The notes below the pieces were generated by a model that saw only the letters and a list, made by a program, of their open reading frames with translations, had not been told where the DNA came from and ran no database searches. This document shows positions 3,387-51,782 of a DNA stretch of 64,000 bases, piece by piece (within the stretch, counting starts at the first letter, position 1; each line of letters opens with the position of its first letter). This DNA is from Patescibacteria group bacterium (GTDB lineage Bacteria; Patescibacteriota; Microgenomatia; UBA1400; PJMF01): positions 576,410 to 640,409 of the forward strand of contig JBMORP010000006.1 in NCBI GenBank assembly GCA_049322655.1. The letters are read 5' to 3'. The position numbers and the translations under genes were made by a program.

Positions 3387-3476
3387 AAACTTCCCTTTTT
3401 AAACTATTGAATATTAGTCGTAAAAAAACTTAAAAACCTACAACCAGTTTTTTTATTTTATTACCAGAGGTAAATC

Positions 3477-5720: not shown

Positions 5721-5725
5721 TAATC

Positions 5726-6151
5726 ATGAGATTACTCTCTTATTTCAGTTTAGTGGGCAAGCTATTTTTTTCTTTAGTTTATTACTTGTGTTTGTTTTTT
5801 TTAGAGAAAATTTTTGCTAATAAATTTTTTTTGATAACTAATAGTTTGCTCACTGGACTGGCTTTGCTGCTTTTATTAGTTATTTTTCAAACACCAGACT
5901 TTATTCCCCCTCCTGAACCAAAAATCTTACCCATTAATAAAACTGACCAAGTAAAAACAGTTAAGCTTTCCCAACAAGAAGCCCACCTACTTTTACAAGC
6001 CAATTTAATTCCCAGCATTGAAGAAAATGTTTCTCAAAAATACTATTTAAACTTAGCCAACTTAAATCTCATTGCTAGTGATAAACAAAAAGCGGACTAC
6101 TTTTTAAAAATAGCCCGCTATATAAATCCAAATACTAGTTTTATTGAATAA
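5726..6151 (+). CDS. hypothetical membrane protein
   Basis: ORF with two predicted hydrophobic helices and no recognizable motif. Confidence 0.3.
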   Translation: MRLLSYFSLVGKLFFSLVYYLCLFFLEKIFANKFFLITNSLLTGLALLLLLVIFQTPDFIPPPEPKILPINKTDQVKTVKLSQQEAHLLLQANLIPSIEENVSQKYYLNLANLNLIASDKQKADYFLKIARYINPNTSFIE

Positions 6152-6154
6152 AAA

Positions 6155-6820: not shown

Positions 6821-7211
6821 TTTACCTTTCAACGTTGTTGTTTTTAGTTTTCTTTTAAACCAGGCGTACATTGTACCACACCCAAGTCGAGTTATCTTTG
6901 CTATCAAAAGATATCAAACTAGTTTTTTAATAGCCATATATTTTTTAATTGAATTATCAATCTAAAGTATCTTTTTTATCTTTAAAACACGTGAAAATAA
7001 TCTGACATTTAAATGACACGAAACTGACATAAAACTGACAAACAATCAGTTTACTTGAGAAAAAAAGTTTTTCACAGCCAGACCTCAATTCCTCTAACAA
7101 TAAAAAACTAATTAATGAACTTAAAATTGTAGTTTTTTTTAAAAATAAAGATAAGTAAAAAATTAATTATTTTTTTATAAAGTTGTGAATAAAATGTGGA
7201 TAAATAAAAAA

Positions 7212-10091: not shown

Positions 10092-10154
10092 AGACAGGTA
10101 GGTCTATTGTATGGATTTAACTAGATCTTGGAAAGGAGAAGTCTTAAAAACTGT

Positions 10155-10574
10155 TTAAACTTCAGAATAAGAATCCATTGCTTGATTAGCTAAGGCATCA
10201 GCCACAGTATTTTTATTTCTCAGAACATGAGTAATTTTAATCGGGTAGGGGAGAGTCGCTAACTTTGTCCAAGCTTCATTGACAAGCTTTTTTAATCTGT
10301 CTTCTTTAATTTTCCAGTTTTTGTTAATTTGTTCAACAACTAACTTAGAATCTAGAAAAAAATCAACTTTGCCAATTTGATTTTTAGCAGAAAAATCAAC
10401 TAACCATTCTAGAGCTGTTAAAAAAGCCAAATATTCAGCCTCATTGTTGGTTTTTTGTCCAAAAAAAACTGATTTTTCAAAGACTATTTCACCTTTGTTC
10501 TCAACAACCACTCCACCACCAGCTATTCCTGGATTACCTCTAGAACCACCATCTGTGTAAATTTTTAACTCCAT
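10155..10574 (-). CDS. rnhA: ribonuclease HI
   Basis: MELKIYTDGGSRGNPGIAGGGVVV ... EAEYLAFLTALEWL match RNase H catalytic motifs. Confidence 0.85.
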   Translation of the reverse strand: MELKIYTDGGSRGNPGIAGGGVVVENKGEIVFEKSVFFGQKTNNEAEYLAFLTALEWLVDFSAKNQIGKVDFFLDSKLVVEQINKNWKIKEDRLKKLVNEAWTKLATLPYPIKITHVLRNKNTVADALANQAMDSYSEV

Positions 10575-10602
10575 TATCTTTATTAACCTTTTTGACTAAG
10601 CT

Positions 10603-11070
10603 TTAGGCTTGTTTTTTACGAACCACTAACACTCTACCAAAAGTATCATCTTCAGAGAAAGTCTCAATATCAGCGAAGTCTTTATTATTACCGATTGCTG
10701 AGTGGACTAAAAATCTCTCATAGGAATTAAGATCATTAAAGACATACTCTCGACCTGATTCTCTAACTTTTTCAGCAACCGCTAAAGCTCTTTCTTGTAG
10801 TCTGGCTTCTCGTTCTTTTCGGTAACCATTAATATCAATAAGGAGGCGTTCTTCTTCAGTAATTTCATCTTGGTGGGCCAAACGAACTAACATTTCAATG
10901 GCTTCCAAAGTCTCACCTTTGGCTCCAATAAAGTGTTTCGCCTTTTCTTCTGGAAGAATGACGTTTAAATAAATTTTGTCATCTTCGCGAGTTTCTTCAA
11001 ACCCAATCTCTGCTTCTTCAATTCCATAAAAATCAAAAATACGAGTGATTCTGCTTTTAATTTTTTGCAT
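10603..11070 (-). CDS. jag: Jag/KhpB-like RNA-binding protein (KH + R3H domains)
   Basis: KH-like IGAKGETLEAIE and R3H-like YERFLVHSAI; sits immediately downstream of yidC as in canonical origin regions. Confidence 0.7.
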   Translation of the reverse strand: MQKIKSRITRIFDFYGIEEAEIGFEETREDDKIYLNVILPEEKAKHFIGAKGETLEAIEMLVRLAHQDEITEEERLLIDINGYRKEREARLQERALAVAEKVRESGREYVFNDLNSYERFLVHSAIGNNKDFADIETFSEDDTFGRVLVVRKKQA

Positions 11071-11809
11071 ATTTTCCTATAAATCTTTGGTAATAAGTTT
11101 TTAACCCACCCCAGCCAGAAATAAAATATTGTTGACCAATGGTGAAAATATTACTTACTACCCAATAAAGAGCTAAGCCTGCTGGAAACTGGGCAGCAAC
11201 TACTCCCATAATAACCGGCATCACAAACAACATTTGTTGTTGCATGGTGGCAGCCATTTCAGCTGTATCTTCTTCCTTTGCGTTAGCTTCTTTTACTTTT
11301 TTACTACTACTCTTATTTGGCACGATATCTCTAATTTCAGCACCTGGTGCAATCATTAAAGATAAAATTAATTGGGTTAAACCAGCTAAAATTGGTAAAA
11401 TAAAGGTTGAGTCTGTTTGGGTAACGTTAAACCATAAAAAATTAAGATCCAGACTTTCTGGTAAACCACCATTTAAAAACTTAAGCATTGCTTGGTAAAG
11501 AATAATAATTACGACAAACTGTAAAATTTGGGGAATACAACCAGCAATTGGATTAGCATTGTATTTTTGGTAAAGTTCGAGTTGAGCTTTTTGGAGTTGT
11601 TGTTTGTTTTTGCCATATTTTTTACTCAACTTTTTTAGTTCTGGCTGAAGTTGTTGGAGTTGTTTTTGGGCTTTAAGTGAAGAATTTGCTAGAGGAAAAA
11701 CAGCAAACTTAGTCAATAAAGTAAAAACAATAATTGACCAGCCCAAACTACCAAAAGTTTCACTAAGAAAAATTAAAAAATTAACGCTTTGTTCAATTAA
11801 ATATCCCAT
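11057..11809 (-). CDS. yidC: membrane protein insertase YidC/Oxa1 family (short form)
   Basis: Polytopic membrane protein with a conserved GCIPxLLQ-like segment (GCIPQILQFVVIIILYQ); synteny with yidD and rnpA. Confidence 0.8.
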   Translation of the reverse strand: MGYLIEQSVNFLIFLSETFGSLGWSIIVFTLLTKFAVFPLANSSLKAQKQLQQLQPELKKLSKKYGKNKQQLQKAQLELYQKYNANPIAGCIPQILQFVVIIILYQAMLKFLNGGLPESLDLNFLWFNVTQTDSTFILPILAGLTQLILSLMIAPGAEIRDIVPNKSSSKKVKEANAKEEDTAEMAATMQQQMLFVMPVIMGVVAAQFPAGLALYWVVSNIFTIGQQYFISGWGGLKTYYQRFIGKYAKN

Positions 11810-11818
11810 TTGTTCCTT

Positions 11819-12025
11819 TTACCAACAAGTTAATAGACGAATTAACCCTTTTATCGATCCAACGATTGTACCATGTCTTTCGATTTCTGCTTGAGTATAT
11901 CGGCTGCAGGTGGGGGTGTGTTTACACCGACTACTAAAACCAAAAACAGAGTAAAGAAGTTGGTGTTTAAAACTACCAATGCCTTGATAAAGACTAAAAA
12001 TTAAATATCTAAGTTTTTTTGCCAT
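11819..12025 (-). CDS. yidD: membrane protein insertion efficiency factor YidD
   Basis: CKHTPTCSRYTQAEIERHG matches the YidD family signature. Confidence 0.8.
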   Translation of the reverse strand: MAKKLRYLIFSLYQGIGSFKHQLLYSVFGFSSRCKHTPTCSRYTQAEIERHGTIVGSIKGLIRLLTCW

Positions 12026-12368
12026 GCTGTTGAATAAATGTAAAAAGACTTTTTAGATCTTTACTAAGCATAGTCTCATGGTTAATAAAATCTAAGTTAT
12101 GCCTTAACCGAATTACCAATCTTAAGTTGGTTGGTTTATAAATGACTAGTTCTTGAGGAAAATTATTAAAAATAAGTCTTTTTAACTTGTTTCTAGCTGA
12201 AGCTAAACTAACAATTTTTTTAGGAATAACAACGGCAAATTGATTTTTTTCACCACCCAAAAAATCAAAGTTAGCTATAATTAATTTTCCCTTCCAAAAA
12301 AAGCCATTAAGAAAAATACTTTTAGTCGATAATAACTTTAGATTTAAACGGTGTGTTTTGGCTAGCAT
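12009..12368 (-). CDS. rnpA: ribonuclease P protein component
   Basis: Small basic protein (MLAKTHRLNLK...) between rpmH and yidD; 17-nt overlap with yidD. Confidence 0.7.
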   Translation of the reverse strand: MLAKTHRLNLKLLSTKSIFLNGFFWKGKLIIANFDFLGGEKNQFAVVIPKKIVSLASARNKLKRLIFNNFPQELVIYKPTNLRLVIRLRHNLDFINHETMLSKDLKSLFTFIQQHGKKT

Positions 12369-12632: not shown

Positions 12633-13736
12633 TTAATTGGTTCTAAAAGGCATCACGATATATAAAATATCTCGTTCTTCAGGAAAACTAAACGCTACTG
12701 GTTTCAAACTTTCATTGAGTTGAAAAATAATCTCACCTTCTTTTTGGGTATTTAAGAAATCTAATAAATACATTGCATTAAAAGCCACTTCTTGTTCTTC
12801 ACCAGTAAAGTCGATCTCGATCTCGCCAATATATTCTCCGGCAGCAGGAGAAACCGCTTTAACTATTAATTTATTTGGAGATAAAAATAATTTGACGATG
12901 TTTGAAGCGTCTTTCGAAAATAAATAAGCTCTTTTGACTTGAGTAGCTAACTCTGAAAGATCTAGTTTTATGGTATGAACAAACTCAGCTGGAATAATTT
13001 TTTCATAAGGTGGGTATTCTCCTTCAATTAATCTGACATAAATCTCAATCCCATCAACCACAAATAAGACTTGTTTAAGCTCTTCAGAGACTCTAAAAAC
13101 AACTTTGTCTGACTCTGTTTGGGCTATCATTCTAAATACTTCATTAAGGGCTTTTACAGGGATTAACAATTCTTTCTCAAAACCTAGTTTTTGACTGTGA
13201 GCTTTCATCGTTGCTAATCTATAACCATCTGTGGCAGCAATTTCTAAACCTTGTTCTTTAAAACTAAAAAGCAGTGAAGTTAAAACTGGTCTCGTTAAGT
13301 CTTGAGCTGCAGCAAAAGTAATATATTTATCAATTTTAGCCAATAAATTTTTATCCAAAGAAAAATCTTCACCAGTTACTTCAGGAAATTGAGGATATTC
13401 TTCTGCTGATTGATAGGGGAGAGAACTTTTGCTTTTTTCATAACTAATGACTAAAGATTTATCTTTTTGTTCAAAAATAATTTCTCCTGCTGAAAAAGAA
13501 AAAACCAGATTTTTAAAAATATCACCAGGTATAACACAACTACCTGATTGTTCTATCTGAGCTGGAATAACGTTTTTTATTCCCAGAAACAAATCTGTTG
13601 CTGCCAAAACCAATTGATTATTTTCTGCTTTTAAATAAATAGATGACAAAATTGGTAATTGAGGTTTGCTCGGAATTGCTTTTTGCAAATTGGTTAAAGC
13701 TGTTTTTAGATTTTCTTGTAAAACTCTAATTTTCAT
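12633..13736 (-). CDS. dnaN: DNA polymerase III beta subunit (sliding clamp)
   Basis: MKIRVLQENLKTALTNLQKAIPSKPQLPILSSIYLKAENNQLVLAATD is the typical DnaN N-terminus; ~367 aa; directly downstream of dnaA. Confidence 0.9.
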   Translation of the reverse strand: MKIRVLQENLKTALTNLQKAIPSKPQLPILSSIYLKAENNQLVLAATDLFLGIKNVIPAQIEQSGSCVIPGDIFKNLVFSFSAGEIIFEQKDKSLVISYEKSKSSLPYQSAEEYPQFPEVTGEDFSLDKNLLAKIDKYITFAAAQDLTRPVLTSLLFSFKEQGLEIAATDGYRLATMKAHSQKLGFEKELLIPVKALNEVFRMIAQTESDKVVFRVSEELKQVLFVVDGIEIYVRLIEGEYPPYEKIIPAEFVHTIKLDLSELATQVKRAYLFSKDASNIVKLFLSPNKLIVKAVSPAAGEYIGEIEIDFTGEEQEVAFNAMYLLDFLNTQKEGEIIFQLNESLKPVAFSFPEERDILYIVMPFRTN

Positions 13737-13739
13737 AAA

Positions 13740-14005
13740 AGATCTTTTCTAACTATCTATATAAATATAATTGTTGTAGTAATAATAGAGGCTGTTGATA
13801 AGTGGAAAAAACCTCATAAATTACTCTAGTTAATTGATAAAAAACGATGTGTATTCATCAGTTTTACAATTCTGAAAAACTTTGTGTATTGTGCAGGAAA
13901 ACTCTGTGAAAATCGAGAGCTTTTTCACAAAATTAAAAAGTTATTCAAAGTTTTCCAACACCTTTCCACTTAGTTATCCCCAAAGTTTTCCACAATTGTT
14001 GAAAA
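13740..14005. promoter_or_regulatory. candidate oriC: AT-rich dnaA-dnaN spacer with a DnaA-box cluster
   Basis: Same-orientation 9-mers matching TTATNCACA with at most 1-2 mismatches: TTTTTCACA 13921-13929, TTTTCCAAC 13951-13959, CTTTCCACT 13962-13970, TTATCCCCA 13974-13982, TTTTCCACA 13986-13994. Confidence 0.5.
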
Positions 14006-15496
14006 CTATTGTTTAGAGACTGCTGTTAAAGACATTCTCAAAGCAGAAATATCTTGTTTTATCAATCCTTCTTCGTCTTTTTCCTTTTCTATTTTTTTAA
14101 TGGCATGTAACACACTTGTATGATCTCTACCAGAGAACCACTTACCAATTTCTTCCAAAGGCATATTTAACTCAGTCCTAAGTAAATACATGGCCAAATG
14201 TCTAGCGTTAACAATCTCTTTAGTTCTCCTTTTACCTTTTAAAGCACTTTGTTTAATGCGGTAATGGTTGGCTACAGTCTTAATTACGTCTTGAGGTTTT
14301 GCTCTAATAATCAATCTATTAGCAGGGGCTTCTGTTTTAAGTAAGCTTTGAATTAATTCTTCATTGATAGTTTTTTGTTTCAGTTCTACCTCTGAACGAA
14401 GTAGTTTAACAATACCTTCAATTCTTCTAGCTCCATCTACTTTGGAAGAAATTAATTGGGCTAACTCCATTGGTAAATCAAGATTATTTGCTTGGGCTTT
14501 AATTAATAAAATGGCCGTTCTTAACTCGAATGAAGGTTGTTGGATATCAATCATTAAACCAGCCTCAAATCTGGATCTTAATCTGGATTCAAGCAAATTA
14601 ATTTCGTGAGGAGGCCGATCTGAAGTGAGAATAATTTGAGAAGCTTGTTTGGTCAAAGCGTTAAAGGTATGAAAAAACTCTTCTTGGACGGCATTCTTTC
14701 CAGCAATAAACTGAACATCGTCAATCAATAAAACCTGAGTATTACGGTATTTTCTTTTAAAATCAAAGGCTTTTTTCTTTTGAATAGCGTTAACAATCTC
14801 GTTAGTGAATTCTTCACCAGTACAGTAGATGATGTTTGTTTCTGGATTTTGTTTGAGAATGTTATGACCAATAGCTTGCATTAAATGAGTTTTACCAACC
14901 CCAACCCCACCATAAAGAAAAAGAGGGTTATAAGCTACACCTGGGTTGTTGGAGACAGCAGTGGCCGCAGCATGAGCCATCTCATTAGTAGTCGAAACAG
15001 CAAAAGTTTTGAAAGTGTAATCTTCTCTGAGTCCGACTCTTCTAGCTGCAACTTTTGCTCGATCTTGAAAACTAGCTTGAAGAGTATGAGCTGAGAACAG
15101 CTCGTCAACGGTTGGGGAGCCAGTCTCTCTGGAATATGATAAAAGATTAGTTTTTGTTGAAGTTTTTTTGTCTGAACTTATTGTTTGTTCATTACTTCTA
15201 GCAAGCTCTATTGGGTTGCCGACAATAAATTCAAGTTCGACAGCTTTATTTAATTCTTTTTCCAAAGTTTCTTTGATTTGAACATAAAGATTTTTTTTTA
15301 AGTTAGTGGCATGAAAAGCGGTCGGACAAGTAATTGTCGCTAAGGCTTGATTTTGTTGATCAACCTCTACCTTGGTTAATGGATTAGAAACAATCCAAGT
15401 ATTAAACACGGCTGGTGTTAATTGGGTTTTAAGACTTTCTTGGCTGGCTTTCCAGACTTTAATCACTTCACTTGAATCAAGTGCTTTAGTAAACAT
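14006..15496 (-). CDS. dnaA: chromosomal replication initiator protein DnaA
   Basis: AAA+ Walker A GGVGVGKTHLMQAIGH and C-terminal DNA-binding helix region; dnaA-dnaN synteny. Confidence 0.95.
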   Translation of the reverse strand: MFTKALDSSEVIKVWKASQESLKTQLTPAVFNTWIVSNPLTKVEVDQQNQALATITCPTAFHATNLKKNLYVQIKETLEKELNKAVELEFIVGNPIELARSNEQTISSDKKTSTKTNLLSYSRETGSPTVDELFSAHTLQASFQDRAKVAARRVGLREDYTFKTFAVSTTNEMAHAAATAVSNNPGVAYNPLFLYGGVGVGKTHLMQAIGHNILKQNPETNIIYCTGEEFTNEIVNAIQKKKAFDFKRKYRNTQVLLIDDVQFIAGKNAVQEEFFHTFNALTKQASQIILTSDRPPHEINLLESRLRSRFEAGLMIDIQQPSFELRTAILLIKAQANNLDLPMELAQLISSKVDGARRIEGIVKLLRSEVELKQKTINEELIQSLLKTEAPANRLIIRAKPQDVIKTVANHYRIKQSALKGKRRTKEIVNARHLAMYLLRTELNMPLEEIGKWFSGRDHTSVLHAIKKIEKEKDEEGLIKQDISALRMSLTAVSKQ

Positions 15497-15611
15497 TTTC
15501 TCCTTAATAGGACAGGTTTTGACAATAAAATCTAAGAGGGCAGTTCCGATTTGATTGCTTAGTTATACACCTAGTTTTCCACAATTTGTCAAGTGGAATT
15601 TTAATTAAAAA
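15497..15611. promoter_or_regulatory. dnaA upstream region with DnaA-box-like sites (autoregulatory promoter region; alternative oriC position)
   Basis: TTATACACC (15562-15570), TTTTCCACA (15576-15584) and an inverted AAGTGGAAT (15591-15599). Confidence 0.35.
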
Positions 15612-17681
15612 CTAATTTTTTGGGGGAGAATAGTCATCAATAGTGTAATATCCAGCGTAAGATTGTTTGTTTGCTGCGACTTGTTGCTGAGAAGTTGTCT
15701 GAGTTGAAGGAAGGATTTGTTCTTCAACAGAACTCTCTTCAGCCTCTGTTTCTGAATTAATAGAAACTTGGTTTTCTAGTGGTGATTGTTGTTTATTAGG
15801 AATACCAAATGAAAACTTTGGTTTTTCCTTTGGTTGTTTTTGGGCTTCAAGTTGAGCTATTTTTAATTTTTTTTCTTCTTCTTTTCTCTTTAAGACTTCT
15901 TCTGGATTGGTAGTGATGACTTCATGTTCCTCATCGCTGGCTACCACTCTGAGGGCTACATGGTTTTGCCCAGCAAAAAAGATGCCCTCACCAACATCTG
16001 AAGATACTAATAACTGTCTTTCTCCTTCAGAAAGATAGAAAGTCTCTGCTAAAACTGGGATTGAAGCGGTAGATTGTTTCATTAAAAACTGAATCGAAGC
16101 ATTACTCACAATTGCTTTACCATAATCATTATGAATAAAATCTTCAACGTCTTGAGTGATAGTTGTAATTCCTAAATAATATTTTCTAGCCCGCTTAACC
16201 ATGGAGTGAATAAATGAAGCACTATCTTTATGCTTCATAAAGTACCAAGCTTCATCAATTACCAGGATTCTTCTTTTAAGATCTTTTTTAACTCTTGTCC
16301 AAATAAAATCAAGAATAATGAACATGGCAATTGGTCTAAGCTCTTCTTCCATTTCCTTAACAGAAAAAACAGTAAATGGATTAGTAATATCTAGGTTGGA
16401 TGGTTTATCAAAAATACCTCGAAAAGAACCAGTAATAAATTTTTCTAGTCTAGCCGCAATATCATTTGCTTCATCGTTTTCCATACCAATTAGAGCTTTA
16501 TAAAGATCTTCCATTAACGGTGGTTCATTGGTTTGAGTGACTGGGTCTGGAGTAATTCCTTTGGCCTTATAAGCCGAGATTAACGCCCTATCTAATAAAG
16601 CCTCTTGTTGAGAAGTCATGTTTCCCAGCATTACTTTTAGTAGGCCGTGAAGGGTAAGAATCTTTTGGCCAAGTTCATTTTCACCTTCTTCATACATGGC
16701 TGATAAATCAAATGGATTGATTTTAGTTTTTGAACCAAAAGTAAAGTTAATATATTCTCCGCCTACTTTTTTAGCCAACTCTTCATATTCATGTTCTGGA
16801 TCAAGAACAATTACTTCAGCATCAAACATTAATTGACGAATAACTTCTAATTTAACCGTGTAAGATTTACCAGCACCTGATTTAGCAAAAATCACCATAT
16901 TGGCATTTTCCATTTTAAATCTGTCAAAAATAACTAAAGAATCATTGTGCTCATTAATGCCATAGAGGATACCTGTTTCCATGGTAAGCTCTGAAGAAGT
17001 AAAAGGAAAAGTTGTCGCCAATGAAGTTGTATCCATATTGCGGGTAACCATTAACTTGTCTCTTCCCATTGGCAAGGTTGTTTTGAAGCCCTCATCCATT
17101 TGTAAAGTAGCCTTTTTAGAGACAATTAGTAATGAACCCAACATTGATTGAATGTTTTTGGTTACTTTATTTAAGCTGTCCAAACTGGGGGAAGTAAGGG
17201 TTACATAAAGCCCAAATTGAAAAAATCTTTCAGCGCCAGCTGCTAGTTGTTCTCTAATGGTTCTGGCATCGCCCAACTTAATTTCAGTATTAATATTACT
17301 AATTTTTCCTGACCTAATATCTGATTGGATTTCAGCCTCCATTTCAGTAATTTTTCTTTTCAAGTTATCTAAGACCTCAGCAGAGTCAACAGGATAAATA
17401 AACATCGAGATATTGGCTTGATTTGGATAATTAATCAAAGGAGATAACCAGTTGGCTGGAACTGTTCTTGGATAGCCAGCCACAAATAATGTTCTGGTGT
17501 AAGTCGAGTTGATTTGTTGATAAGTAAAATCAACTTCAATTGCTTCTGGCGCAATGATATCTTGAATTGTTACCAAACCTTGAGAAAACTCTTTGATTTT
17601 CTCCATTTGTTTTTGTTCAGGAGTTATTTCTGGCTGATTATCTGTTTTTTTTGGGTTTAAAAATGGTAACTGAAAGGGCAT
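15612..17681 (-). CDS. VirB4/TrbE-like type IV secretion ATPase
   Basis: Walker A FAKSGAGKSYTV, Walker B LVIDEAWYFM, and overall VirB4/CagE-like organisation (689 aa). Confidence 0.7.
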   Translation of the reverse strand: MPFQLPFLNPKKTDNQPEITPEQKQMEKIKEFSQGLVTIQDIIAPEAIEVDFTYQQINSTYTRTLFVAGYPRTVPANWLSPLINYPNQANISMFIYPVDSAEVLDNLKRKITEMEAEIQSDIRSGKISNINTEIKLGDARTIREQLAAGAERFFQFGLYVTLTSPSLDSLNKVTKNIQSMLGSLLIVSKKATLQMDEGFKTTLPMGRDKLMVTRNMDTTSLATTFPFTSSELTMETGILYGINEHNDSLVIFDRFKMENANMVIFAKSGAGKSYTVKLEVIRQLMFDAEVIVLDPEHEYEELAKKVGGEYINFTFGSKTKINPFDLSAMYEEGENELGQKILTLHGLLKVMLGNMTSQQEALLDRALISAYKAKGITPDPVTQTNEPPLMEDLYKALIGMENDEANDIAARLEKFITGSFRGIFDKPSNLDITNPFTVFSVKEMEEELRPIAMFIILDFIWTRVKKDLKRRILVIDEAWYFMKHKDSASFIHSMVKRARKYYLGITTITQDVEDFIHNDYGKAIVSNASIQFLMKQSTASIPVLAETFYLSEGERQLLVSSDVGEGIFFAGQNHVALRVVASDEEHEVITTNPEEVLKRKEEEKKLKIAQLEAQKQPKEKPKFSFGIPNKQQSPLENQVSINSETEAEESSVEEQILPSTQTTSQQQVAANKQSYAGYYTIDDYSPPKN

Positions 17682-17715
17682 TGGTTTTTATTTTAACACT
17701 CCATAACTATTTCTA

Positions 17716-18801
17716 TTAAAGCTCAGCGACCGGAGGCATGGTTTTCTCTACCTTTGGTTGTTGCGCTATTTTTAATTCTGGAACAATTGGCTGTGTTTTT
17801 TCAACTCCTGGTTGAGCTGGCTGAGGCTTAGTTATTGGAACAGAAGATGGGACTTCAGCTTGAAAAACAGTTTGTTGTGTTGGCAGTTGTGGTTTAGGTA
17901 ATTCTTTTTCTGGAATTGGTTGTTGAGCTGAAGTTTGTTCAATGTTCACATTGTTGGCTGGAGGAGTATTCTGTGGCATATCAGGAATTTCTTTTGGAAC
18001 AACAGCAGATTCAGTTATTTCGGCAATTCCAGCTGGAGGAATATCAGTCAAAGAATTAACTTGTTCTTGTGAAGAATTATTATCTGTTGTGAGCGCTTTG
18101 AGAGAATCGGCGTCTGGAATTGTTTTGGCCTGCACAACCATGGTGGTGTAGTCTTTACTATCAGTAATTTGTTGGCCCTCATAAGCTTCAGGATTATAGC
18201 TATTATAGAAAATCTCAATAATTTCTTGGGTATCTAATTGTCTAGCATAAAGCCCAATTCTATTAAATTGGGCAATTAAATGATCTCTTCTTGGTTCTAA
18301 AACACCCAAGCCTTTTTCGATAACGGCAGCCTTTTGTTCTCTAGTTAAAACAGGCTCATTTTTACCGGGAAGAACGGTTTGTGGAGTAATCATACCAACT
18401 TCAGCGGGTGCTGCTGGCACTACCACATAAAATTTCTTATCTAAAACATTTCTTTCTTTAATTAGTTGACCGACAAATTGTTGATAGCGACCAATTAAGT
18501 CTTTTTTTTCTAAAGTAGAAGCTTTGGCTGCTTGTTCATCTAATAACCTCAAATAGGCAGTCGCATCTTTTGTTTTTGAACTAATAATAATTTGAATCGG
18601 AAAATTTAATGAATTGAGTAAAGCAGCATAAGCATAAATAATGGCATCTTGTTCTTGCTCGGCTAGCAAACCAAAGTTCATTGCACTGATTACCATCACC
18701 AAAGATATTGTGCCATCTTTTAAAACGACAACATTATTAGTGATATCAAAAATATCAAGGAACTTTTGGGTTGTAGAAGAAATTTCACCAGCATCAGACA
18801 T
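17716..18801 (-). CDS. hypothetical protein with Pro/Gln-rich C-terminal half (T4SS-cluster associated)
   Basis: ORF co-directional with and upstream of the VirB4-like gene; the C-terminal third is low-complexity P/Q/T-rich. Confidence 0.4.
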   Translation of the reverse strand: MSDAGEISSTTQKFLDIFDITNNVVVLKDGTISLVMVISAMNFGLLAEQEQDAIIYAYAALLNSLNFPIQIIISSKTKDATAYLRLLDEQAAKASTLEKKDLIGRYQQFVGQLIKERNVLDKKFYVVVPAAPAEVGMITPQTVLPGKNEPVLTREQKAAVIEKGLGVLEPRRDHLIAQFNRIGLYARQLDTQEIIEIFYNSYNPEAYEGQQITDSKDYTTMVVQAKTIPDADSLKALTTDNNSSQEQVNSLTDIPPAGIAEITESAVVPKEIPDMPQNTPPANNVNIEQTSAQQPIPEKELPKPQLPTQQTVFQAEVPSSVPITKPQPAQPGVEKTQPIVPELKIAQQPKVEKTMPPVAEL

Positions 18802-18852
18802 ACTTGTTTACTATGGTACTAGAAATCAAGGCTAAATCGCAATGAGAAAACT

Positions 18853-19896
18853 CTAACTTGAACGAATTTCTAGCGGGGGAACCAGATTTCCACTTAAAGC
18901 AATAGTTTGTTCAGGAAAAGTCAAGCCAACTTTTTTTACTCCCACAACATAAGTGCCGTTGGGTAGTGCAGTACTTAAAGAAAATTGACCCAACAAGTTT
19001 GTTTTTAAGGCATTAATTACTTGTCCTTGGTTATTTTTTATTTCCACTACAGCCTGATCAACCAGTTTGTTATCTGGAGTTAAGACCATGCCAACTAAAG
19101 CATTGGGTTTATTGGGTTGTTTGGGAAAAGGAAGAGTGTTGTTAGTGACGACTTCTTTGGTTGGCAGTGAAAAAGATTGTGTTGGCAAATCAAACTTCGT
19201 TGATTCAACAGCAGGGGTATCTAGCTGTGGAGCTTGACTTAATGATTCATTTTGCGCAATGATTTCTTGCTTTTGGTTTTTTTGTTGTTGCTGAAAAATC
19301 ACGTTTTCTGAGCTAGCTACAGGAATAGTTTTTTGTTTGGCAAGATTTCTTGGTTTAGTAGTTAGTTTCGGTTTTATTTTTTGTGGTTTAGCGATCACTT
19401 CGTCGACTTTGACATCATTGTATTGAGCCAAAATATTAGCCATTCTTTGTTGGTCATCATCGTCTAATTGGTTTTTTTCAGTGTTAGAGCTAACAGAGTT
19501 TAAGTATTCTCTAATTCTCTGTCTTCTAGCTGGGGTTAAGTCAATTTCAAATTCTTCCTCTTCTTTGGTTTTTTCTCTTTTAATATGTGTAAAGGCAAAC
19601 GGAACTTCAGTCTCTTTTTTCCAATAAAACTTAGTAGGACTATACAATCTTCTAAAAAAAGTAGTGATCCAATGATCTAGGGGTCTTTCTTCAATGGGTA
19701 CAAAAGCCACCATTGCCCCAAAGCCTGCCGATAAAATAATTAATGGCCACTTAATAAAAGCAATTAAATTGGTATTGTAAATAATTACGCCAATTACTAC
19801 CCCAACAGCAATCTCTGCAAATTGTTTCAGGGTCATGTTTCCAACAATGTGGAATTTGTAACCAACGACGTCCTGTGGAATTGGATGTTCTCGCAT
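18853..19896 (-). CDS. membrane protein with PrgI/VirB3-like N-terminal TM hairpin and a C-terminal beta-rich domain
   Basis: N-terminal ~100 aa carry two TM helices (IAVGVVIGVIIY...LIILSAGFGAMVAFVPI), as in Gram-positive T4SS PrgI-like proteins. The call rests on position and topology only. Confidence 0.35.
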   Translation of the reverse strand: MREHPIPQDVVGYKFHIVGNMTLKQFAEIAVGVVIGVIIYNTNLIAFIKWPLIILSAGFGAMVAFVPIEERPLDHWITTFFRRLYSPTKFYWKKETEVPFAFTHIKREKTKEEEEFEIDLTPARRQRIREYLNSVSSNTEKNQLDDDDQQRMANILAQYNDVKVDEVIAKPQKIKPKLTTKPRNLAKQKTIPVASSENVIFQQQQKNQKQEIIAQNESLSQAPQLDTPAVESTKFDLPTQSFSLPTKEVVTNNTLPFPKQPNKPNALVGMVLTPDNKLVDQAVVEIKNNQGQVINALKTNLLGQFSLSTALPNGTYVVGVKKVGLTFPEQTIALSGNLVPPLEIRSS

Positions 19897-19936
19897 GCGA
19901 CTCTATCTTAGCGTGTCTATAAAATCGTTGCTAGGG

Positions 19937-20917
19937 TTACTCTGCTACTTTGACAGCTGGAGCAATTATTTCTGCCTGGATTTTTTGATTATCTTGGTTA
20001 ATTATTTCTCCTGAAAAATGATAAAAAGGATAAGCTAAATTGTTTTTTAAATCGGCTCGGTATTCCAATTGAACAGCGGTTAGATCTCCAGCCACAATCT
20101 CTTCTAAACTGAACACGCCGGTATTTGGCTCATAGGCAGAAATAATAGAGGCATATTGTTTGTTATTAATGTTTTCCAAAACTTCTCCCAAAGAAAGGAT
20201 TTTAAATTGTTGTTCAGTAGGCAGCGGGTAGAAAAAATTAGGTTGAAAAACTATTTTTTGAACTTGATATTCACTATTAACCAGAATCGTTAAAGGAAAT
20301 TTTTCTCTATGTTCTATTAACAGCGGAACACCATCAACACTATAAGTAAAAGGAATCTCCAAAGCAGCAATCTGCCCAGTTTTGACTTCTTCCATTTCTT
20401 GTAAACCAGAAAACTTTTTAATTTTATCTAACTGAATAGTAAATGGGATTTGATCAAAAACTTCGTTAACATAGTTTTGAGCAACAGTGATGGCCCTATC
20501 TCTGCTTGTCAAGACAACATCTTTGGGTAAATAGTTAGAGTAAAAAAGGTATTCATCATCTTGATTATTATAAGAAAGAGTATAATTTTCTCCTTTCCAC
20601 AAACCATCAATATTCTCAACTGGTTTTAAGTTATGAGTTTCAATAAATCGTTTTTTTAGATATTCAACATTAGTGTTGCTGGGTTGAATCTTTACTAGAG
20701 GAAGATTGTTTTTGAGTGTGGGCAAATCGCCAGAAAACTTAATATTATTGAAGTGAGATTTATTACCATCGCTATTGACTTTGATAAATTCATTTTCTGG
20801 GATGACAACATTTTTTGGTGTAATAAACCTAAAAACCACAGTTATAAAGATTCCGACACAACTCACAATGAACAACATGACATACCATTTTTTATTTTCA
20901 AATAAGTTTTTATTCAT
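19937..20917 (-). CDS. bitopic membrane protein (possible VirB8-like T4SS component)
   Basis: Single N-terminal TM (WYVMLFIVSCVGIFITVVFRFI) followed by a ~290-aa extracytoplasmic domain. The assignment is by topology and position only. Confidence 0.3.
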   Translation of the reverse strand: MNKNLFENKKWYVMLFIVSCVGIFITVVFRFITPKNVVIPENEFIKVNSDGNKSHFNNIKFSGDLPTLKNNLPLVKIQPSNTNVEYLKKRFIETHNLKPVENIDGLWKGENYTLSYNNQDDEYLFYSNYLPKDVVLTSRDRAITVAQNYVNEVFDQIPFTIQLDKIKKFSGLQEMEEVKTGQIAALEIPFTYSVDGVPLLIEHREKFPLTILVNSEYQVQKIVFQPNFFYPLPTEQQFKILSLGEVLENINNKQYASIISAYEPNTGVFSLEEIVAGDLTAVQLEYRADLKNNLAYPFYHFSGEIINQDNQKIQAEIIAPAVKVAE

Positions 20918-35352: not shown

Positions 35353-35775
35353 TTAAAGAATTTTTACCCCAAAGATAATCTCTAGGATTTGGGCTACCCA
35401 ATAAGAAGCAAACAAAATCAAAAAACCAACAATAGCCATGGTGACTCGTTTTTTACCTTCTTCTAAGCTTTTAGCATTAGTCGCTCCAGCTAGAATTTGT
35501 AACCCACCGGCTACAATCATGACAAATAAAGCTAAACCAGCAATTGGAAAAGCAAAAGTTAGTGCTCGGCTAATGATTCCTCCTGGGGTAGAGAGTTCAG
35601 CTGCATGGGGGGAGTTAGCTACTTTTAGTGGATCAAATGAGTCTAAAACATCAGATGTAACTTCATAAGAGTTTTCTTCAGCTGGTAAATCGGCAGCATT
35701 AACTAGAGTTGGAGAAACTAAACTTAGCCAAACTAGACTGGTTAAAACTAGCATTTGTTTGATTTTATTATTCAT
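35353..35775 (-). CDS. TrbC/VirB2-like pilin-family small membrane protein (paralog 8)
   Basis: Start set to the ATG at 35775 (MNNKIKQMLVLTSLVWLSLVSPTLVNA signal peptide; GGAGG SD 8 nt upstream). C-terminal LAGATNAKSLEEGKKRVTMAIVGFLILFASYWVAQIL matches the family core. Confidence 0.5.
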   Translation of the reverse strand: MNNKIKQMLVLTSLVWLSLVSPTLVNAADLPAEENSYEVTSDVLDSFDPLKVANSPHAAELSTPGGIISRALTFAFPIAGLALFVMIVAGGLQILAGATNAKSLEEGKKRVTMAIVGFLILFASYWVAQILEIIFGVKIL

Positions 35776-35779
35776 GTTT

Positions 35780-37006
35780 TTAGCCTCCAAAACCAGGGAT
35801 CTGGAATAGGTTGACACCAATAAATCTTAGCATGGTAATAGAGAAGATGATAAAGACCATGCCGATAATAGCTGAAGTAATCTGCTCTTTAGCATCTTTG
35901 GTTGCTTGTGGGTCTCCTTGAGAAACAGATAATCTAAATGCTCCAGCCAGAATTAGTAAGAAGGTGGCACCCCCTCCAACGCTTAAACCAACGGTAATAA
36001 AGGTTTTGATAATGCTATCAGGTTTAGCTGGAATACAGCCAATCGCAGTCCACACGCCAGCATTGCCATTGAAAGTTTCTCCACCGAAACAAGCTTGGCA
36101 TTTATCCCGGTCTTCAGCTGTAGCCTGTTCACACAGTTCAAAGTTTTTCACCATCACGTTCTCAGAAACATCAGTTCTAATGTCATCACACATTTCGTCT
36201 TCACAGTAGTCAATGGTGTTAAAACTAGTTGAACAGCCAGGAAAAATATATTTGGGACCTTCAGCAGTCTCTACATGAATTTTATAGGTAGTTTGATTGT
36301 CAGCTTCAAAACTAGCAGAGGCTTTACCTCCTGTAGCTTTGGTTTTTTCGTCAGCAGTGCTCCCACCCTTAATGACAAATTTTACTTCACCAGAGAAGGG
36401 TTTGCCTTGTGAATCTTCCAAACCCTCGACTTCTATTTTGGTGGTAGAAGAAGTTGTGTCCATGCAGCCAGATGAATAACAGGTTTGCCCATCCCTACTT
36501 TGTGAAACATACAAAGCACATTTGCCACCAGTGTTGTTGTTGCTAGTTTTATAAGTACCAGCATCACAGATTTTTGAACCATTTTTATAGATAGAAATAT
36601 AATGTTCTGCTTCTTCGCCACTGATTCCCCAGTGAGTTAATGCACCTTCTTCTTTAATTGTCCAAGTAACCTTACCATTTTTTAAGTTAAGAGTATTGCT
36701 ACCATTGGTCAGAGTACCACTTTTGGTAGTTTTAAATTTGGCTGAAGTTGCTTGAGCGTCTCCCCACCAGCCACTAACAACTATTTCGTATTCACCATTT
36801 GGATCATAACCACTACTCATATCGATTTCGATAGTGTGAGAGGTGGTGCCAGCAGGCAAAGTGCCTCTTGCTCCACTCAGTACGCCACTACATGAGCCAA
36901 CAGCTTCCACATTAGTGACACTAATTGCCAAGAAAGATAATCCCAAAAAGATAGTAAGGAAAATTTTTTTAACCAAAACAAAAAATGATTGATAAGTCTT
37001 AATCAT
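35780..37006 (-). CDS. secreted Cys-rich ectodomain fused to a C-terminal TrbC/VirB2-like pilin module (candidate minor pilin/adhesin)
   Basis: Signal peptide, a ~300-aa Cys/Thr/Gly-rich domain, then IGCIPAKPDS...GDPQATKDAKEQITSAIIGMVFIIFSITMLRFIG, which matches the pilin-family core. Confidence 0.5.
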   Translation of the reverse strand: MIKTYQSFFVLVKKIFLTIFLGLSFLAISVTNVEAVGSCSGVLSGARGTLPAGTTSHTIEIDMSSGYDPNGEYEIVVSGWWGDAQATSAKFKTTKSGTLTNGSNTLNLKNGKVTWTIKEEGALTHWGISGEEAEHYISIYKNGSKICDAGTYKTSNNNTGGKCALYVSQSRDGQTCYSSGCMDTTSSTTKIEVEGLEDSQGKPFSGEVKFVIKGGSTADEKTKATGGKASASFEADNQTTYKIHVETAEGPKYIFPGCSTSFNTIDYCEDEMCDDIRTDVSENVMVKNFELCEQATAEDRDKCQACFGGETFNGNAGVWTAIGCIPAKPDSIIKTFITVGLSVGGGATFLLILAGAFRLSVSQGDPQATKDAKEQITSAIIGMVFIIFSITMLRFIGVNLFQIPGFGG

Positions 37007-49785: not shown

Positions 49786-50385
49786 ATTAAAGAAGATTAT
49801 AGCTTATTTTAGTTTTTACACCAGTTTCCCCCAATCATGTTTTTAATGTAGATAACTTTTTAAATTAGTCTGGTTTTGTTTTAAAAAATATTATATAAGA
49901 TATCTAAAAAAATAAGTATTTATTATTATAAGATGCAAAAATTTGACAAAATGGTCCCAAAAGAGTTATAGTAAATTTGTTTTAAAAATAATAAGTAAAA
50001 GAAGCCGGTTTTTCACTGAAGGACTGAATAATTTAGTGATTCACAGGTTGGAAGATTCTTTGAAAAGTTGTTTTTAAGGCATTAAAAATGGAAGAATAAA
50101 TTCTCTAACAATTTTCCTCAAGATGGAAAACTAGAGATAAAAAAATCCACCGCAATTTGTAGATTCCAGAACATGGCAGGCAGAACTACAAACACGGTGG
50201 ATAAGGGTGCAAGATTACCGCTGGAAGACCACGAATAATATTGCTCTTTGATTCTCACTTGCCATTACGGTTTGTGAGAGTTGATCTGAACATAGCATTT
50301 TCGTCGGGTGGGGTAAACTAGATATTAATAATTGTTAATGTTCATTACTATATATTAATGTTCAGTCTTGCTGTATAATACGGGT

Positions 50386-50463
50386 TAGATTCGTGAAAGC
50401 GTTAAGTTGAAGTTCGGTTGGTTGGGCAGGCTACCGAACTTCAGCTTAGCGCTTTTTTTATTT
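50386..50463 (+). ncRNA. candidate small RNA: extended -10 promoter (TGcTGTATAAT 50369-50379) followed ~25 nt later by a 20-bp hairpin and a T-tract
   Basis: Stem GCGTTAAGTTGAAGTTCGGT (50399-50418) / ACCGAACTTCAGCTTAGCGC (50433-50452) with 2 mismatches, then TTTTTTTATTT. No ORF. A TTAATGTTCA direct repeat sits upstream (50355-50364 and 50347-50356 region). Confidence 0.3.
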
Positions 50464-50587
50464 GCCAAATAATTCCCAAAACGTCCTTATAACTTGTATA
50501 TTTTGATGCTTTTTGCTATAATTTGTAGGATTTGAGTCGTTTTCAAAGATTTTTGCAATCTCTAGAAAAAACTCAAGTTTTAGTTCT

Positions 50588-51010
50588 TTAACATGGGGAA
50601 AAACTTATTTTCTTAAGATTTTATTTTTTGGTTTTCTAGTGGATAACCCAGATTTAGAGATGGTGTCTTTAGATCTGGGTTATTCTGACTCTAGCAATGG
50701 AGGAGGAAGCCTAAATTTAATGTTCGTAAGGAGATAAGCATGGATTACGACAAAAAGTTTGAACGATGGTTGACGAGCGGAGTGAACTCAATTCCTCAGC
50801 TCAGGCGCAAAATTAAGCGACACCTCAGAAACACTCGCAATTCTGACTATCGGGCAATCATGAAACGATTGACCTGGGATGAGGAATATGCTGAGGACTT
50901 TCTTGGTTTAGCAAAATAGCGCCACCAACAAAATGAAGTATCTCCAAAGATGGAGGTGCGGGTTTGCCCGCACCTCCAATCTCCTGGCTAAAAACCAGGC
51001 CCCATGTTAA
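50588..51010 (+). mobile_element. inverted-repeat-bounded cassette-like unit 1 (423 bp) carrying a 59-aa basic ORF
   Basis: Perfect 11-bp terminal inverted repeats TTAACATGGGG (50588-50598) / CCCCATGTTAA (51000-51010); internal 13-bp-arm palindrome 50641-50685; GC-rich hairpin GGAGGTGCGGG-ttt-GCCCGCACCTCC 50951-50978. Confidence 0.45.
50740..50919 (+). CDS. small basic protein (59 aa) inside cassette unit 1
   Basis: AAGGAG SD 5 nt upstream of the ATG. Translation is MDYDKKFERWLTSGVNSIPQLRRKIKRHLRNTRNSDYRAIMKRLTWDEEYAEDFLGLAK. Just under the ORF-track size cutoff. Confidence 0.4.
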   Translation: MDYDKKFERWLTSGVNSIPQLRRKIKRHLRNTRNSDYRAIMKRLTWDEEYAEDFLGLAK

Positions 51011-51150
51011 TTTTTAAACCTGAATTAAACTAATTTTAGGCTCATATATTTTCTTATTTGACATATTGTGATATAATATGAATCTGTTAAATTTCTTCAA
51101 TTTGTATTTGCTACAAATTAACAAGATTTTTAACAACTAATTTTTGCTCG

Positions 51151-51728
51151 TTAACATGGGAAAATAGTTTTTAGGATACTTTTTGAATTGTTGTTAATAT
51201 TTGTATTTTTTAGATAGTCCCGGTTTGAAGAACTAAGTTCTTTTGACCGGGATTATCTATGAGCCTCTGCGTCAGCAGGGGAATATAGATGTCTACACTA
51301 TTTCAAGGAGTTCCCTGTGAACAATAAAGTTGATTACCGCTCTTTCATGAGCAACCTGCTCGATGGCGTCGAAACCGTCGAAGGACTGCGCGCCAAGGTC
51401 CGCCCGATGCTCGAAGACCGCAAGTCGGCTGACTACGTCAAGCCCGGCACCGAATGCACCTGTGATTGTGGTCGCGACCTCCGCGCCCACCTTCAGGACA
51501 TCCTGGACAATGATGACTTCGCTCAGCATCTGGTCGTCGGCCTGTCGTTGGCTGACCTTCTCGGCATGCTGGGGCTGTCCGCCTCTGGGCCTGGCCCGGA
51601 GACCATCATGACCGGCGTCATCATCATCGGCGACGAAGAAGACTAACCAACAACGCAGGCACAACCAACATGGCGCACGGGCTTGCCCGTGCGCCATCCT
51701 TGATGTTCACTAACTATTCCCATGTTAA
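51151..51728 (+). mobile_element. inverted-repeat-bounded cassette-like unit 2 (578 bp) carrying a high-GC 109-aa ORF
   Basis: Terminal inverted repeats (CG)TTAACATGGG 51151-51160 / CCCATGTTAA(CG) 51719-51728; internal palindrome TAGATAGTCCCGGT...ACCGGGATTATCTA 51211-51259; hairpin ATGGCGCACGGGC..GCCCGTGCGCCAT 51670-51697. The layout is collinear with unit 1. Confidence 0.45.
51317..51646 (+). CDS. hypothetical acidic protein (109 aa) with high-GC, GC3-biased codon usage, probably horizontally acquired
   Basis: GTG start with AAGGAG SD 6 nt upstream. Third codon positions are almost all G/C (GTC GAA ACC GTC GAA GGA CTG CGC GCC AAG GTC CGC CCG ...), unlike every other gene in the window. The overlapping ORFs 51293-51697(-) and 51363-51611(+) are high-GC artefacts. 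Confidence 0.5.
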   Translation: MNNKVDYRSFMSNLLDGVETVEGLRAKVRPMLEDRKSADYVKPGTECTCDCGRDLRAHLQDILDNDDFAQHLVVGLSLADLLGMLGLSASGPGPETIMTGVIIIGDEED

Positions 51729-51782
51729 CGACATCTACATATTTTGTAGTTTAAATTTCCCATTTTTTTATCCTATAACATT

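Follow-up and report, generated by a model that had tools for sequence, protein, structure and literature searches.

Tandem small-gene units with variable coding sequences and a conserved, predicted fold-back mRNA scaffold at a Patescibacteria locus

The window, i.e., the whole stretch of DNA analyzed here, comprises 64,000 nucleotides (nt) from a Patescibacteria group bacterium (GenBank assembly GCA_049322655.1, contig JBMORP010000006.1, positions 576,410 to 640,409 of the forward strand). Upstream of a sortase gene, it carries two tandem units (unit 1 and unit 2), in each of which a small open reading frame (ORF) is enclosed by a pair of short inverted repeats. The gene order at this locus is a CTP-transferase, RadA, a type IV coupling protein (T4CP)-like ATPase (minus strand), an ORF of 96 to 128 amino acids (aa; minus strand), approximately 2 kb of non-coding and small-ORF sequence, and then the sortase, a HAD hydrolase, Rho, a LysM/M23 protein and Obg. 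The units represent a previously undescribed combination of a structured-mRNA scaffold and a hypervariable orphan small-protein gene, present here as two tandem paralogues.

The 10-mer TTAACATGGG has four exact matches in the window, which form two inverted pairs at the unit ends. The chance expectation was 0.24 ± 0.45 in dinucleotide-preserving shuffles, with four copies reached in 0 of 100 trials, and the repeat pairs are not a product of chance. The repeats enclosing unit 1 are TTAACATGGGG (50588-50598) and CCCCATGTTAA (51000-51010), a pair that is perfect over 11 bp; those enclosing unit 2 form a perfect 15-nt pair, TCGTTAACATGGGAA (51148-51162) and TTCCCATGTTAACGA (51717-51731). The two units are collinear and their alignment continues upstream into both promoters, indicating that they are tandem duplicates of an entire transcription unit and not just of its repeat-bounded part. 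Their features are listed below, where P1 to P5 denote helices, SD stands for Shine-Dalgarno, UTR for untranslated region, pI for isoelectric point, GC3 for GC content at third codon positions, and L numbers designate related loci.

50514-50522, + strand: unit 1 extended -10 promoter, TGCTATAAT (from sequence; aligned to the unit 2 element, and relatives show this promoter block ahead of their units)
50529-50579, + strand: unit 1 5'-terminal hairpin of the predicted transcript (minimum-free-energy fold; relatives have hairpins of other sequence at the same position)
50588-50598, + strand: unit 1 left repeat, P1 5' arm (predicted to pair with 51000-51010, probability 0.97; P1 covaries across units)
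50604-50615, + strand: unit 1 leader anti-SD CUUAUUUUCUUA, P2 5' strand (predicted to pair with the SD region at 50727-50738)
50641-50685, + strand: unit 1 hairpin P3, 20-bp arms and 5-nt loop (inverted repeat and covariation)
50689-50702, + strand: unit 1 small hairpin P4 (predicted fold; a small hairpin of varying sequence lies here in every unit)
50727-50738, + strand: unit 1 SD region UAAGGAGAUAAG, sequestered in the predicted fold
50740-50919, + strand: unit 1 ORF, 59 aa, pI 9.9, short family form (homology, profile family, codon changes)
50939-50945, + strand: unit 1 3'-UTR anti-SD UAUCUCC (conserved among unit-1-type units; partner of the SD in the predicted L002, L013 and L016 unit 1 folds)
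50951-50978, + strand: unit 1 GC-rich hairpin P5 (inverted repeat; stem covaries among relatives)
51000-51010, + strand: unit 1 right repeat, P1 3' arm, followed by UUUUU (sequence, predicted fold, covariation)
51069-51077, + strand: unit 2 extended -10 promoter, TGATATAAT (sequence, alignment to unit 1)
51085-51135, + strand: unit 2 5'-terminal hairpin (predicted fold)
51148-51162, + strand: unit 2 left repeat, P1 5' arm, 15 nt (predicted pairing probability 1.00)
51178-51187, + strand: unit 2 leader anti-SD ACUUUUUGAA (predicted fold; leader:SD duplex z = -4.8)
51212-51258, + strand: unit 2 hairpin P3 (sequence and covariation)
51264-51281, + strand: unit 2 small hairpin P4 (predicted fold)
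51304-51310, + strand: unit 2 SD CAAGGAG, sequestered in the predicted fold
51317-51646, + strand: unit 2 ORF, 109 aa, GTG start, pI 4.4, long form with a CxCxCG(R)DLRxH insert (GC 0.59, GC3 0.745)
51670-51697, + strand: unit 2 GC-rich hairpin P5 (inverted repeat)
51697-51703, + strand: unit 2 3'-UTR anti-SD-like UCCUUGA (complementary to UCAAGGA of its own SD; also in L013 unit 2 and L018)
51717-51731, + strand: unit 2 right repeat, P1 3' arm (inverted repeat, predicted fold, covariation)

An initial annotation of this DNA had described much of this layout. The four exact TTAACATGGG copies in two inverted pairs agree with its claim that the same inverted repeat bounds both units, and the SD sequences, the CCAACAA after each stop codon, the GC hairpins and the collinear arrangement are all present in the sequence. 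The leader palindromes it reported exist as well, but their arms are 20 bp once G·U pairs are allowed, not 13 to 14 bp. Similarly, the GC hairpin was found as described, but its GGGYTTGCCC core is common to the two window copies only; relatives retain a hairpin here, with a covarying sequence. The -10 elements had been placed at 50511-50519 and 51085-51093; the homologous extended -10 elements lie instead at 50514-50522 and 51069-51077. After the stop codon, most units of the different lineages carry a single-stranded, CA-rich motif (CCAACAA, CAAACAAC or CAACAAC), which is located at 50925-50932 and 51649-51656 in the window.

The predicted folds of both units were far more stable than those of shuffled sequences (z = -10.3 for unit 1 and -9.5 for unit 2). 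Pairing between the left and right repeats (P1) occurred in 12 of 12 predicted unit folds from seven lineages, with a probability of ≥0.95. The SD region was also paired in all 12 folds, with the leader anti-SD as its partner in seven, the 3' UTR in three and the ORF in two; the leader partner sits between P1 and P3, while the 3'-UTR partner is the conserved UAUCUCC, seen in three unit-1-type units. The consensus order from 5' to 3' is thus promoter and 5'-terminal hairpin, P1 5' arm, anti-SD, P3, P4, and SD with ORF, followed by the CA-rich stretch, P5 (a GC hairpin of covarying sequence), anti-SD-like elements and the P1 3' arm.

Since perfect repeats are trivially predicted to pair, covariation was the real test of these helices. 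Using an ungapped alignment of P1 and P3 from 11 units (L012, which MAFFT misplaced in the helix alignment, was omitted from the pair counts), 93% of cells were paired compared to 84.6% in shuffles (0 of 500 as high), and shifting the structures by 1 to 3 columns left only 29 to 46% paired. Two-sided changes were seen in 16 pairs, compared to 8.5 in shuffles (0 of 500 as many). For P3, compensatory changes were found in 11 of 20 pairs, with 95% of cells paired, and approximately 30 cells were G·U or U·G compared to 11 non-standard cells. If the opposite strand were folded, or the DNA formed a cruciform, these G·U pairs would turn into A·C mismatches, and this asymmetry argues for an RNA of the + strand. 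P1 varied as GGG/CCC, GAG/CUC (three lineages) and AGG/CCU (L013 unit 2), with one U·G pair in L008 unit 1, and loci added later held further compensated variants (AUUAAC/GUUAAU in L023 and GGA/UCC in L024). In several units, P1 was extended past its core by sequences that are unrelated yet complementary. The leader:SD duplexes beat shuffles in most units, and the leader anti-SD changed jointly with the SD region, for example between the unit 1 alleles of L002 and L019. Covariation thus supports the suggestion of the initial annotation that the palindromes could be RNA structures, and the apparent terminal inverted repeats are, judging from these alignments, most likely the strands of an RNA helix on the + strand.

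Searches against Rfam 15 gave 0 matches at the gathering threshold in the window and seven related loci, and nothing but generic hairpin (miRNA-model) matches at E ≤ 10. We also considered an upstream ORF starting at the AUG within the left repeat; this was ruled out, as L013 unit 2 has AUA with a compensating change in the right arm, and no SD.

The two ORFs had initially been regarded as unrelated, and this did not hold. When the 59-aa protein (residues 1-37) was aligned to the 109-aa protein (residues 5-40) by Smith-Waterman, the score was 53, compared to 21 ± 3.7 in shuffles, and 0 of 5000 shuffles in either direction reached this value. MAFFT carried the relationship to the C-terminus, with the long form adding a 15-residue CxCxCG(R)DL insert and a tail, and both proteins fall within one hidden Markov model (HMM) family. 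BLASTP between the two ORFs aligned the wrong segments (E = 0.003) and was set aside; Smith-Waterman with shuffles and MAFFT gave the true relationship. The initial annotation had held that detectable protein homology would speak against mobile units, and such homology is what we found.

Word-indexed homology searches with each ORF returned self-matches only, and relatives required an exhaustive profile search. With HMMER, 10 members were identified among 1.84 billion cluster representatives, two of them with a duplicated domain. The HMM and structure searches proposed in the initial annotation thereby gave both proteins a family, for which AlphaFold models a helical domain, and no known relative: the family is an orphan, with no match in Pfam, NCBIfam or PADLOC and no relative in the PDB. 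Neither the 109-aa protein nor the sortase of the window was on record in an exact look-up; the 109-aa protein is annotated as "MAG: hypothetical protein [Patescibacteria group bacterium]". The AlphaFold model, with a predicted local distance difference test score (pLDDT) above 95 over residues 1-75, suggests that the family core is a soluble four-helix domain. We set aside the reading as precursors of ribosomally synthesized and post-translationally modified peptides (conserved leader, variable core), since no modifying enzymes are encoded nearby and AlphaFold gives a folded conserved domain.

The codon-position GC of the unit 2 ORF (0.66, 0.37 and 0.745) and the synonymous excess among codon changes between orthologues (3 synonymous vs 0 nonsynonymous, and 11 vs 8) indicate that the ORFs are coding. 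The family of these ORFs is an orphan one that evolves fast, and its proteins are small and helical. The GC3 of unit 2 (0.745; z = 9.9) stands far above the 0.284 ± 0.047 of 40 window genes, and with the same reference that of unit 1 is 0.50 (z = 4.6). Across the 64 kb, 300-nt windows reach 50% GC in the unit 2 region only, and GC enrichment was also found in most alleles of relatives. Import from a donor of higher GC, selection on mRNA structure, or throttling by rare codons are possible sources of the high GC in unit 2.

Comparison of relatives showed that the scaffold and its cargo evolve differently. Across lineages, the UTRs share 60 to 80% nucleotide identity, whereas the proteins are 24 to 49% identical and the adjoining sortase shows 65 to 74% amino-acid identity. 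The L002 and L019 loci are essentially 100% identical across approximately 3 kb save for two blocks at 20 to 50% identity, which is the random level, and in both units these blocks coincide with the SD, the ORF and the proximal part of the 3' UTR. The unit 1 alleles of the two loci are diverged homologues (z = 12.5). For the 56-aa unit 2 ORF of L019, no similarity to any family member was detected (hhalign probability 0.1; Smith-Waterman z ≤ 1.8), and the 130-aa protein of L013 unit 2 has only the CxCG(H/R)DLRxH segment in common with the family. The notion of a conserved non-coding scaffold with variable cargo, first raised for the two window units, therefore holds between strains, both for the ORFs themselves and for the gain and loss of modules described below.

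The number of units also varied. L013 and L014 are 97 to 98% identical and encode the same unit 1 protein, while L014 is without the second module of approximately 790 bp (promoter 2 and unit 2). The junction lies within the ATGTTAAC of the right repeats, such that the indel extends from right repeat to right repeat and includes the promoter. Only unit 1 was found in L014, L016 and L023, and only unit 2 in L012, L018 and L024. In L008 (5844-5870), the right repeat of unit 1 and the left repeat of unit 2 are approximately 13 nt apart (CCCCATGTTAGCTTTTTAAGCTCGTTAACATGGG), and the units abut with no second promoter; these units are probably co-transcribed, and their adjoining repeats could form an alternative local hairpin. 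The search for empty sites that had been proposed initially was successful: the locus is empty in L021 and L025, where a solo right repeat, TTTTTCATGTTAACGAATTC, is left before the sortase promoter. This solo right-repeat-like element (CATGTTAACGAATTC) is located approximately 20 nt upstream of the sortase promoter and approximately 80 nt after sRNA-B, a conserved RNA-like element described below. It may have a DNA-level role at the sortase promoter or be a deletion scar. Furthermore, contigs from independent assemblies end at or next to a repeat, namely, the left repeat in L026 (ending at …TTTAACATG) and the right repeat in L017 and L015, which suggests heterogeneity of the population beyond these points, in alleles, in module presence or absence, or by inversion.

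It is likely that long-lived polymorphism, combined with homologous recombination across the conserved UTRs, underlies the exchange and retention of ORF alleles, and the simplest account for whole modules is that recombination at their repeated right ends deletes or adds them. The variation observed would not require a dedicated site-specific system, although one could exist.

The taxonomic range of the scaffold is narrow. The units occur within a narrow Patescibacteria/"Pacebacteria" clade, with 0, 1 or 2 units per genome at the locus, and every homologue for which DNA was fetched has the same syntenic position, with the exception of L011. Using unit-2-type sequences as the query, the protein motif was found in 1 of 185,579 GTDB species representatives ("Candidatus Pacebacteria bacterium CG2_30_36_39"). 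In none of the fetched stretches do the repeats occur outside the locus. Profile HMMs of the 5' UTR built without the window units matched exactly the two window units in 64 kb (E = 1e-20 and 7e-16), and 3'-UTR profiles built in the same way matched them at E = 7e-9 and 4e-6 and nothing else in 64 kb. In viral contigs, 0 matches were found to the patterns of the unit 3' end and of two conserved upstream elements, ncRNA-A and sRNA-B; nothing thus suggests a phage origin. In L011 (stretch 1-12288), the sole unit found outside the syntenic site has as neighbors a ThsB-like TIR protein, PLDc_2, HTH_XRE and a large Ig-like repeat protein, which are typical of variable or defence regions.

Together, these results make it reasonably probable, in our view, that the units are self-contained small-gene transcription units, in which the non-coding parts of the mRNA form a conserved fold-back scaffold that hides the SD while the cargo is variable. 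It has previously been shown for hok and aapA mRNAs that a 5'-3' long-distance interaction and successive anti-SDs make the full-length transcript translationally inert, with activation by 3' processing (PMC6733600). The features seen here, i.e., a small ORF in a very stable predicted fold with a 5'-3' helix and several alternative anti-SDs, lead us to infer a similarly closed form of the mRNA. By this model, P1 would be a long-range 5'-3' helix closing the whole mRNA; within it, the leader anti-SD would pair with the SD region (P2), thereby enclosing P3 and P4, and P5 and further anti-SD-like elements would follow the ORF. The full-length transcript would then be stable yet translationally closed, and opening for translation could occur through 3' or 5' processing, a double-strand-specific RNase acting on P1 or P3, or a further factor. 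Repression of translation by the fold and the opening of the fold are proposed here by analogy with these mRNAs, and any roles of the proteins are likewise inferred.

Several points weigh against this interpretation. All the folds are predictions, and the covariation sample is small (11 to 16 units) and phylogenetically related. The P1 core GUUAACAUG is invariant in sequence, beyond what pairing requires, and might be recognized by an RNase or by a protein that binds RNA or DNA. The complementarity between 3' UTR and SD is statistically weak. No clear intrinsic terminator was seen after the units, the GC hairpins being without U-tracts, and the GC3 of unit 2 is not accounted for by a fold-back model. 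Finally, the analogy to type I toxins is architectural only: the proteins are not hydrophobic and toxin-like, and no antisense RNA was found.

A more far-reaching version, which we put forward tentatively and regard as doubtful, is that the constant P1-P5 RNA scaffold serves this clade as an "expression socket" that keeps a small gene locked against translation. The UTRs would then act as recombination arms through which very different and even unrelated effector ORFs are exchanged between strains and maintained as balanced polymorphism; such a cassette system would operate by homologous recombination on an RNA scaffold and would not depend on an integrase. ncRNA-A and sRNA-B would perhaps be part of the same regulatory module.

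These two upstream elements are themselves strongly conserved. The ncRNA-A block (window 49943-50322) has a conserved promoter, TTGACA…TATAGT, at 49943-49972 and a conserved core at approximately 50146-50320. Approximately 190 nt of it are near-invariant in seven lineages whose sortases are 65 to 74% identical, with three to four predicted hairpins, one of them with a variable tip. It had no match in Rfam and was absent from viral contigs, and by its conservation it looks like an undescribed, highly conserved non-coding RNA. The near-invariant sRNA-B (window 50372-50462) follows an extended -10 element, TGTATAAT, and consists of a 5' tail of approximately 15 nt (ACGGGUUAGAUUCGUGA), a 23-bp hairpin whose loop is conserved, and a U-tract; by this composition, it looks like a small RNA carrying its own terminator. 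sRNA-B is located directly upstream of the units at all syntenic loci and is missing in L011, and its 34-mer core was found in seven metagenome contigs only. Between ncRNA-A and sRNA-B (window 50324-50363) lie two tandem 20-nt direct repeats, ATTAATAATTGTTAATGTTC and ATTACTATATATTAATGTTC, which could be an operator for the sRNA promoter. Elsewhere in the window, in the region 12633-20917, dnaN and dnaA are located at 12633-15496, and the window therefore probably spans the replication origin region. Beside them is a type IV secretion-like cluster with a VirB4/TraG-like ATPase (15612-17681) and a PrgI-like protein, and genes for pilins of the type IV secretion system (T4SS) were seen at other positions, including 830-2681 and 35353-37006.

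Of the alternatives, the one that survives best, although we consider it unlikely, is that the units are true type I toxin-antitoxin-like modules, with toxic small proteins silenced by the fold and an RNA antitoxin that may be one of the upstream non-coding RNAs. The 5'-3' closing helix, the multiple anti-SDs, the tandem copies and the variability between strains are reminiscent of hok and aapA loci. In addition, the sequence immediately upstream holds two highly conserved non-coding-RNA-like blocks, and the L011 copy is found among defence-type genes. GC-ending codons are also rare in the genome, so that codon usage could limit expression. However, the proteins are soluble, helical and 59 to 130 aa long and not membrane peptides, while hok/aapA-type toxins are usually <60 aa; Kyte-Doolittle maxima over 19 residues are -0.26 in unit 1 and 1.76 in unit 2, the latter in the non-conserved tail only. 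No convergent, antisense or inward-facing minus-strand promoter was found inside the units, and the L011 unit is present without the upstream RNAs. The complementarity of the sRNA-B tail and the ncRNA-A loop to the units was neither enriched nor conserved in position. Trans-regulation by either RNA was considered and set aside, since their duplex energies against the UTRs were no better than those of shuffles (mean z of +0.2 for sRNA-B and -0.55 for ncRNA-A) and the target positions were inconsistent; the AACAUGG in the ncRNA-A loop matches the core of the left repeat without covarying with the repeat variants. We therefore do not claim membership among type I toxins, given the soluble helical proteins, the lack of an internal antisense promoter in the units and the lack of enriched complementarity to the upstream RNAs.

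Another explanation, and a distinctly less probable one, is that the units are invertons, in which the repeats are recombinase sites and the ORF segment flips relative to an external promoter, turning the gene on or off. Perfect 11-15-bp inverted repeats around segments of 420 to 580 bp with the promoter outside would fit such a switch, as would a repeat core that is invariant across lineages, which a recombinase site should be, and the L026, L017 and L015 contigs that end at or near a repeat, since mixed populations yield such ends. These contig breaks are, however, equally explained by the directly observed heterogeneity in alleles and in the presence or absence of modules. A single orientation was seen in all of the approximately 25 contigs recovered, these being assembled contigs only. 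No transposase, integrase or reverse transcriptase was annotated within 6 to 10 kb of any locus or among 20 further window ORFs, in a scan for recombinases/Phage_integrase that left out four large ORFs; no recombinase gene was thus found in these surroundings to flip the segment, although a distant enzyme acting in trans may exist. The helix extensions past the core also covary, one pair is U·G, and the interior has features of + strand RNA.

The initial annotation had likened the units to MITE-like elements (miniature inverted-repeat transposable elements), insertion sequences (IS) or integron-like gene cassettes, i.e., mobile units moving by transposition or by site-specific recombination at GTTAAC-containing ends. 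We find this a shade less credible still than inversion. The units are modular, with 0, 1 or 2 per genome, the empty site of L021 and L025 retains a solo CATGTTAACGA, the L011 unit sits in a defence-island-like context, the L013/L014 junction falls inside ATGTTAAC, and GTTAAC is loosely like the integron core site GTTRRRY. On closer inspection, GTTAACA does not fit GTTRRRY, and the palindromic GTTAAC is part of the repeat itself. No target-site duplication was found at the repeats: unit 1 is flanked by TTC and TTT and unit 2 by TTGC and CATC, and neither pair forms a direct repeat. Nor have the units spread: there is at most one locus per genome, the motif was found in a single GTDB species representative, and the proteins amount to 10 cluster representatives. 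The indel is not delimited by the two repeats of a unit and includes the promoter, and an 8-bp microhomology deletion between tandem duplicates accounts for it. The MITE, IS and integron readings therefore fail, as the units show neither target-site duplication nor proliferation nor attC geometry, and no recombinase was found nearby. The mobilisable unit that had been suggested is thus not borne out, given a fixed site, two copies, no recombinase nearby and these indel ends, whereas the accompanying remark that the units do not match integron attC geometry was correct, as the arms are separated by a whole ORF, at a distance of 412 to 850 nt.

Least probable of all is that these are ordinary diverged tandem gene duplicates whose repeats and hairpins are functionless, incidental remnants of promoters or terminators: the homologous ORFs, the alignment through the promoters and the terminator-like GC hairpins would agree with this, but the UTR elements are kept with compensatory changes where the proteins are only 24 to 49% identical, the UTR profiles from other genomes match at E = 1e-20, and the hairpins are without U-tracts.

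If the fold-back interpretation is true, the design of sequestering the SD in a folded-back mRNA, which is known until now mostly from toxins of Proteobacteria and Epsilonproteobacteria, reaches beyond type I toxins to soluble proteins of ultra-small episymbiotic bacteria, in which post-transcriptional control has hardly been studied. The units would also define a new RNA motif and a new orphan protein family. Moreover, replacement of ORFs within 100%-identical scaffolds marks targets of strong diversifying or balancing selection, and in host-attached organisms such selection usually points to functions in conflict or recognition. For metagenome-assembled genomes, short inverted repeats around small genes should not be taken as transposon ends by default, and contig breaks at such repeats can be read as a flag of population heterogeneity.

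Compared with known systems, the units share with MITEs and terminal-inverted-repeat transposons the perfect 11-15-bp terminal inverted repeats around short units, but differ in having no target-site duplication, no proliferation, other indel end-points and near-universal synteny. In fimS-type invertons, short inverted repeats likewise flank a few hundred bp beside a promoter; here, however, no invertase gene was found nearby, a single orientation was seen, the interior is a full SD and ORF and not a promoter, and the evidence favors structure at the RNA level. Integron cassettes resemble the units in their tandem, small and mostly promoter-proximal ORFs, their structured GTTAAC-like end, and their variable cargo and module number. 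An attC site is, however, an imperfect palindrome at the cassette 3' end that contains RYYYAAC and GTTRRRY as core sites, which was not seen here; the arms are 400 to 850 nt apart around the ORF, compared to an attC of 57 to 141 nt after the ORF in integrons. No IntI or attI was found nearby, each unit has its own promoter at a fixed locus with at most two units, and the G·U covariation points to RNA and not to folded single-stranded DNA.

At the RNA level, paired 5' and 3' flanks form a helix in the RNase III processing stalks of rRNA precursors and of phage T7 and λ mRNAs, whose cleavage could release or stabilize the functional RNA in between. The pairing of the flanks in P1 is similar, and a G·U-bearing hairpin of approximately 20 bp, such as P3, would be a plausible substrate; P1 is just 11 to 15 bp, and the analogy is mechanistic only. 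By analogy of architecture, the 5'-3' fold-back mRNAs of type I toxins, namely, hok of hok/Sok (with its fbi-tac pairing) and aapA of the Helicobacter aapA/IsoA system, appear closest. They differ in that the host here belongs to the Patescibacteria, the products are soluble helical proteins of 59 to 130 aa instead of hydrophobic peptides, a gene for an antisense RNA was not found, and the conserved 20-bp hairpin and the invariant GUUAACAUG core are without known counterpart. What the two share is a 5'-3' helix that closes the mRNA (here predicted, and supported by covariation), local and distal anti-SDs that occlude the SD, a stable structured mRNA with a small ORF, and tandem or multicopy modules that vary between strains.

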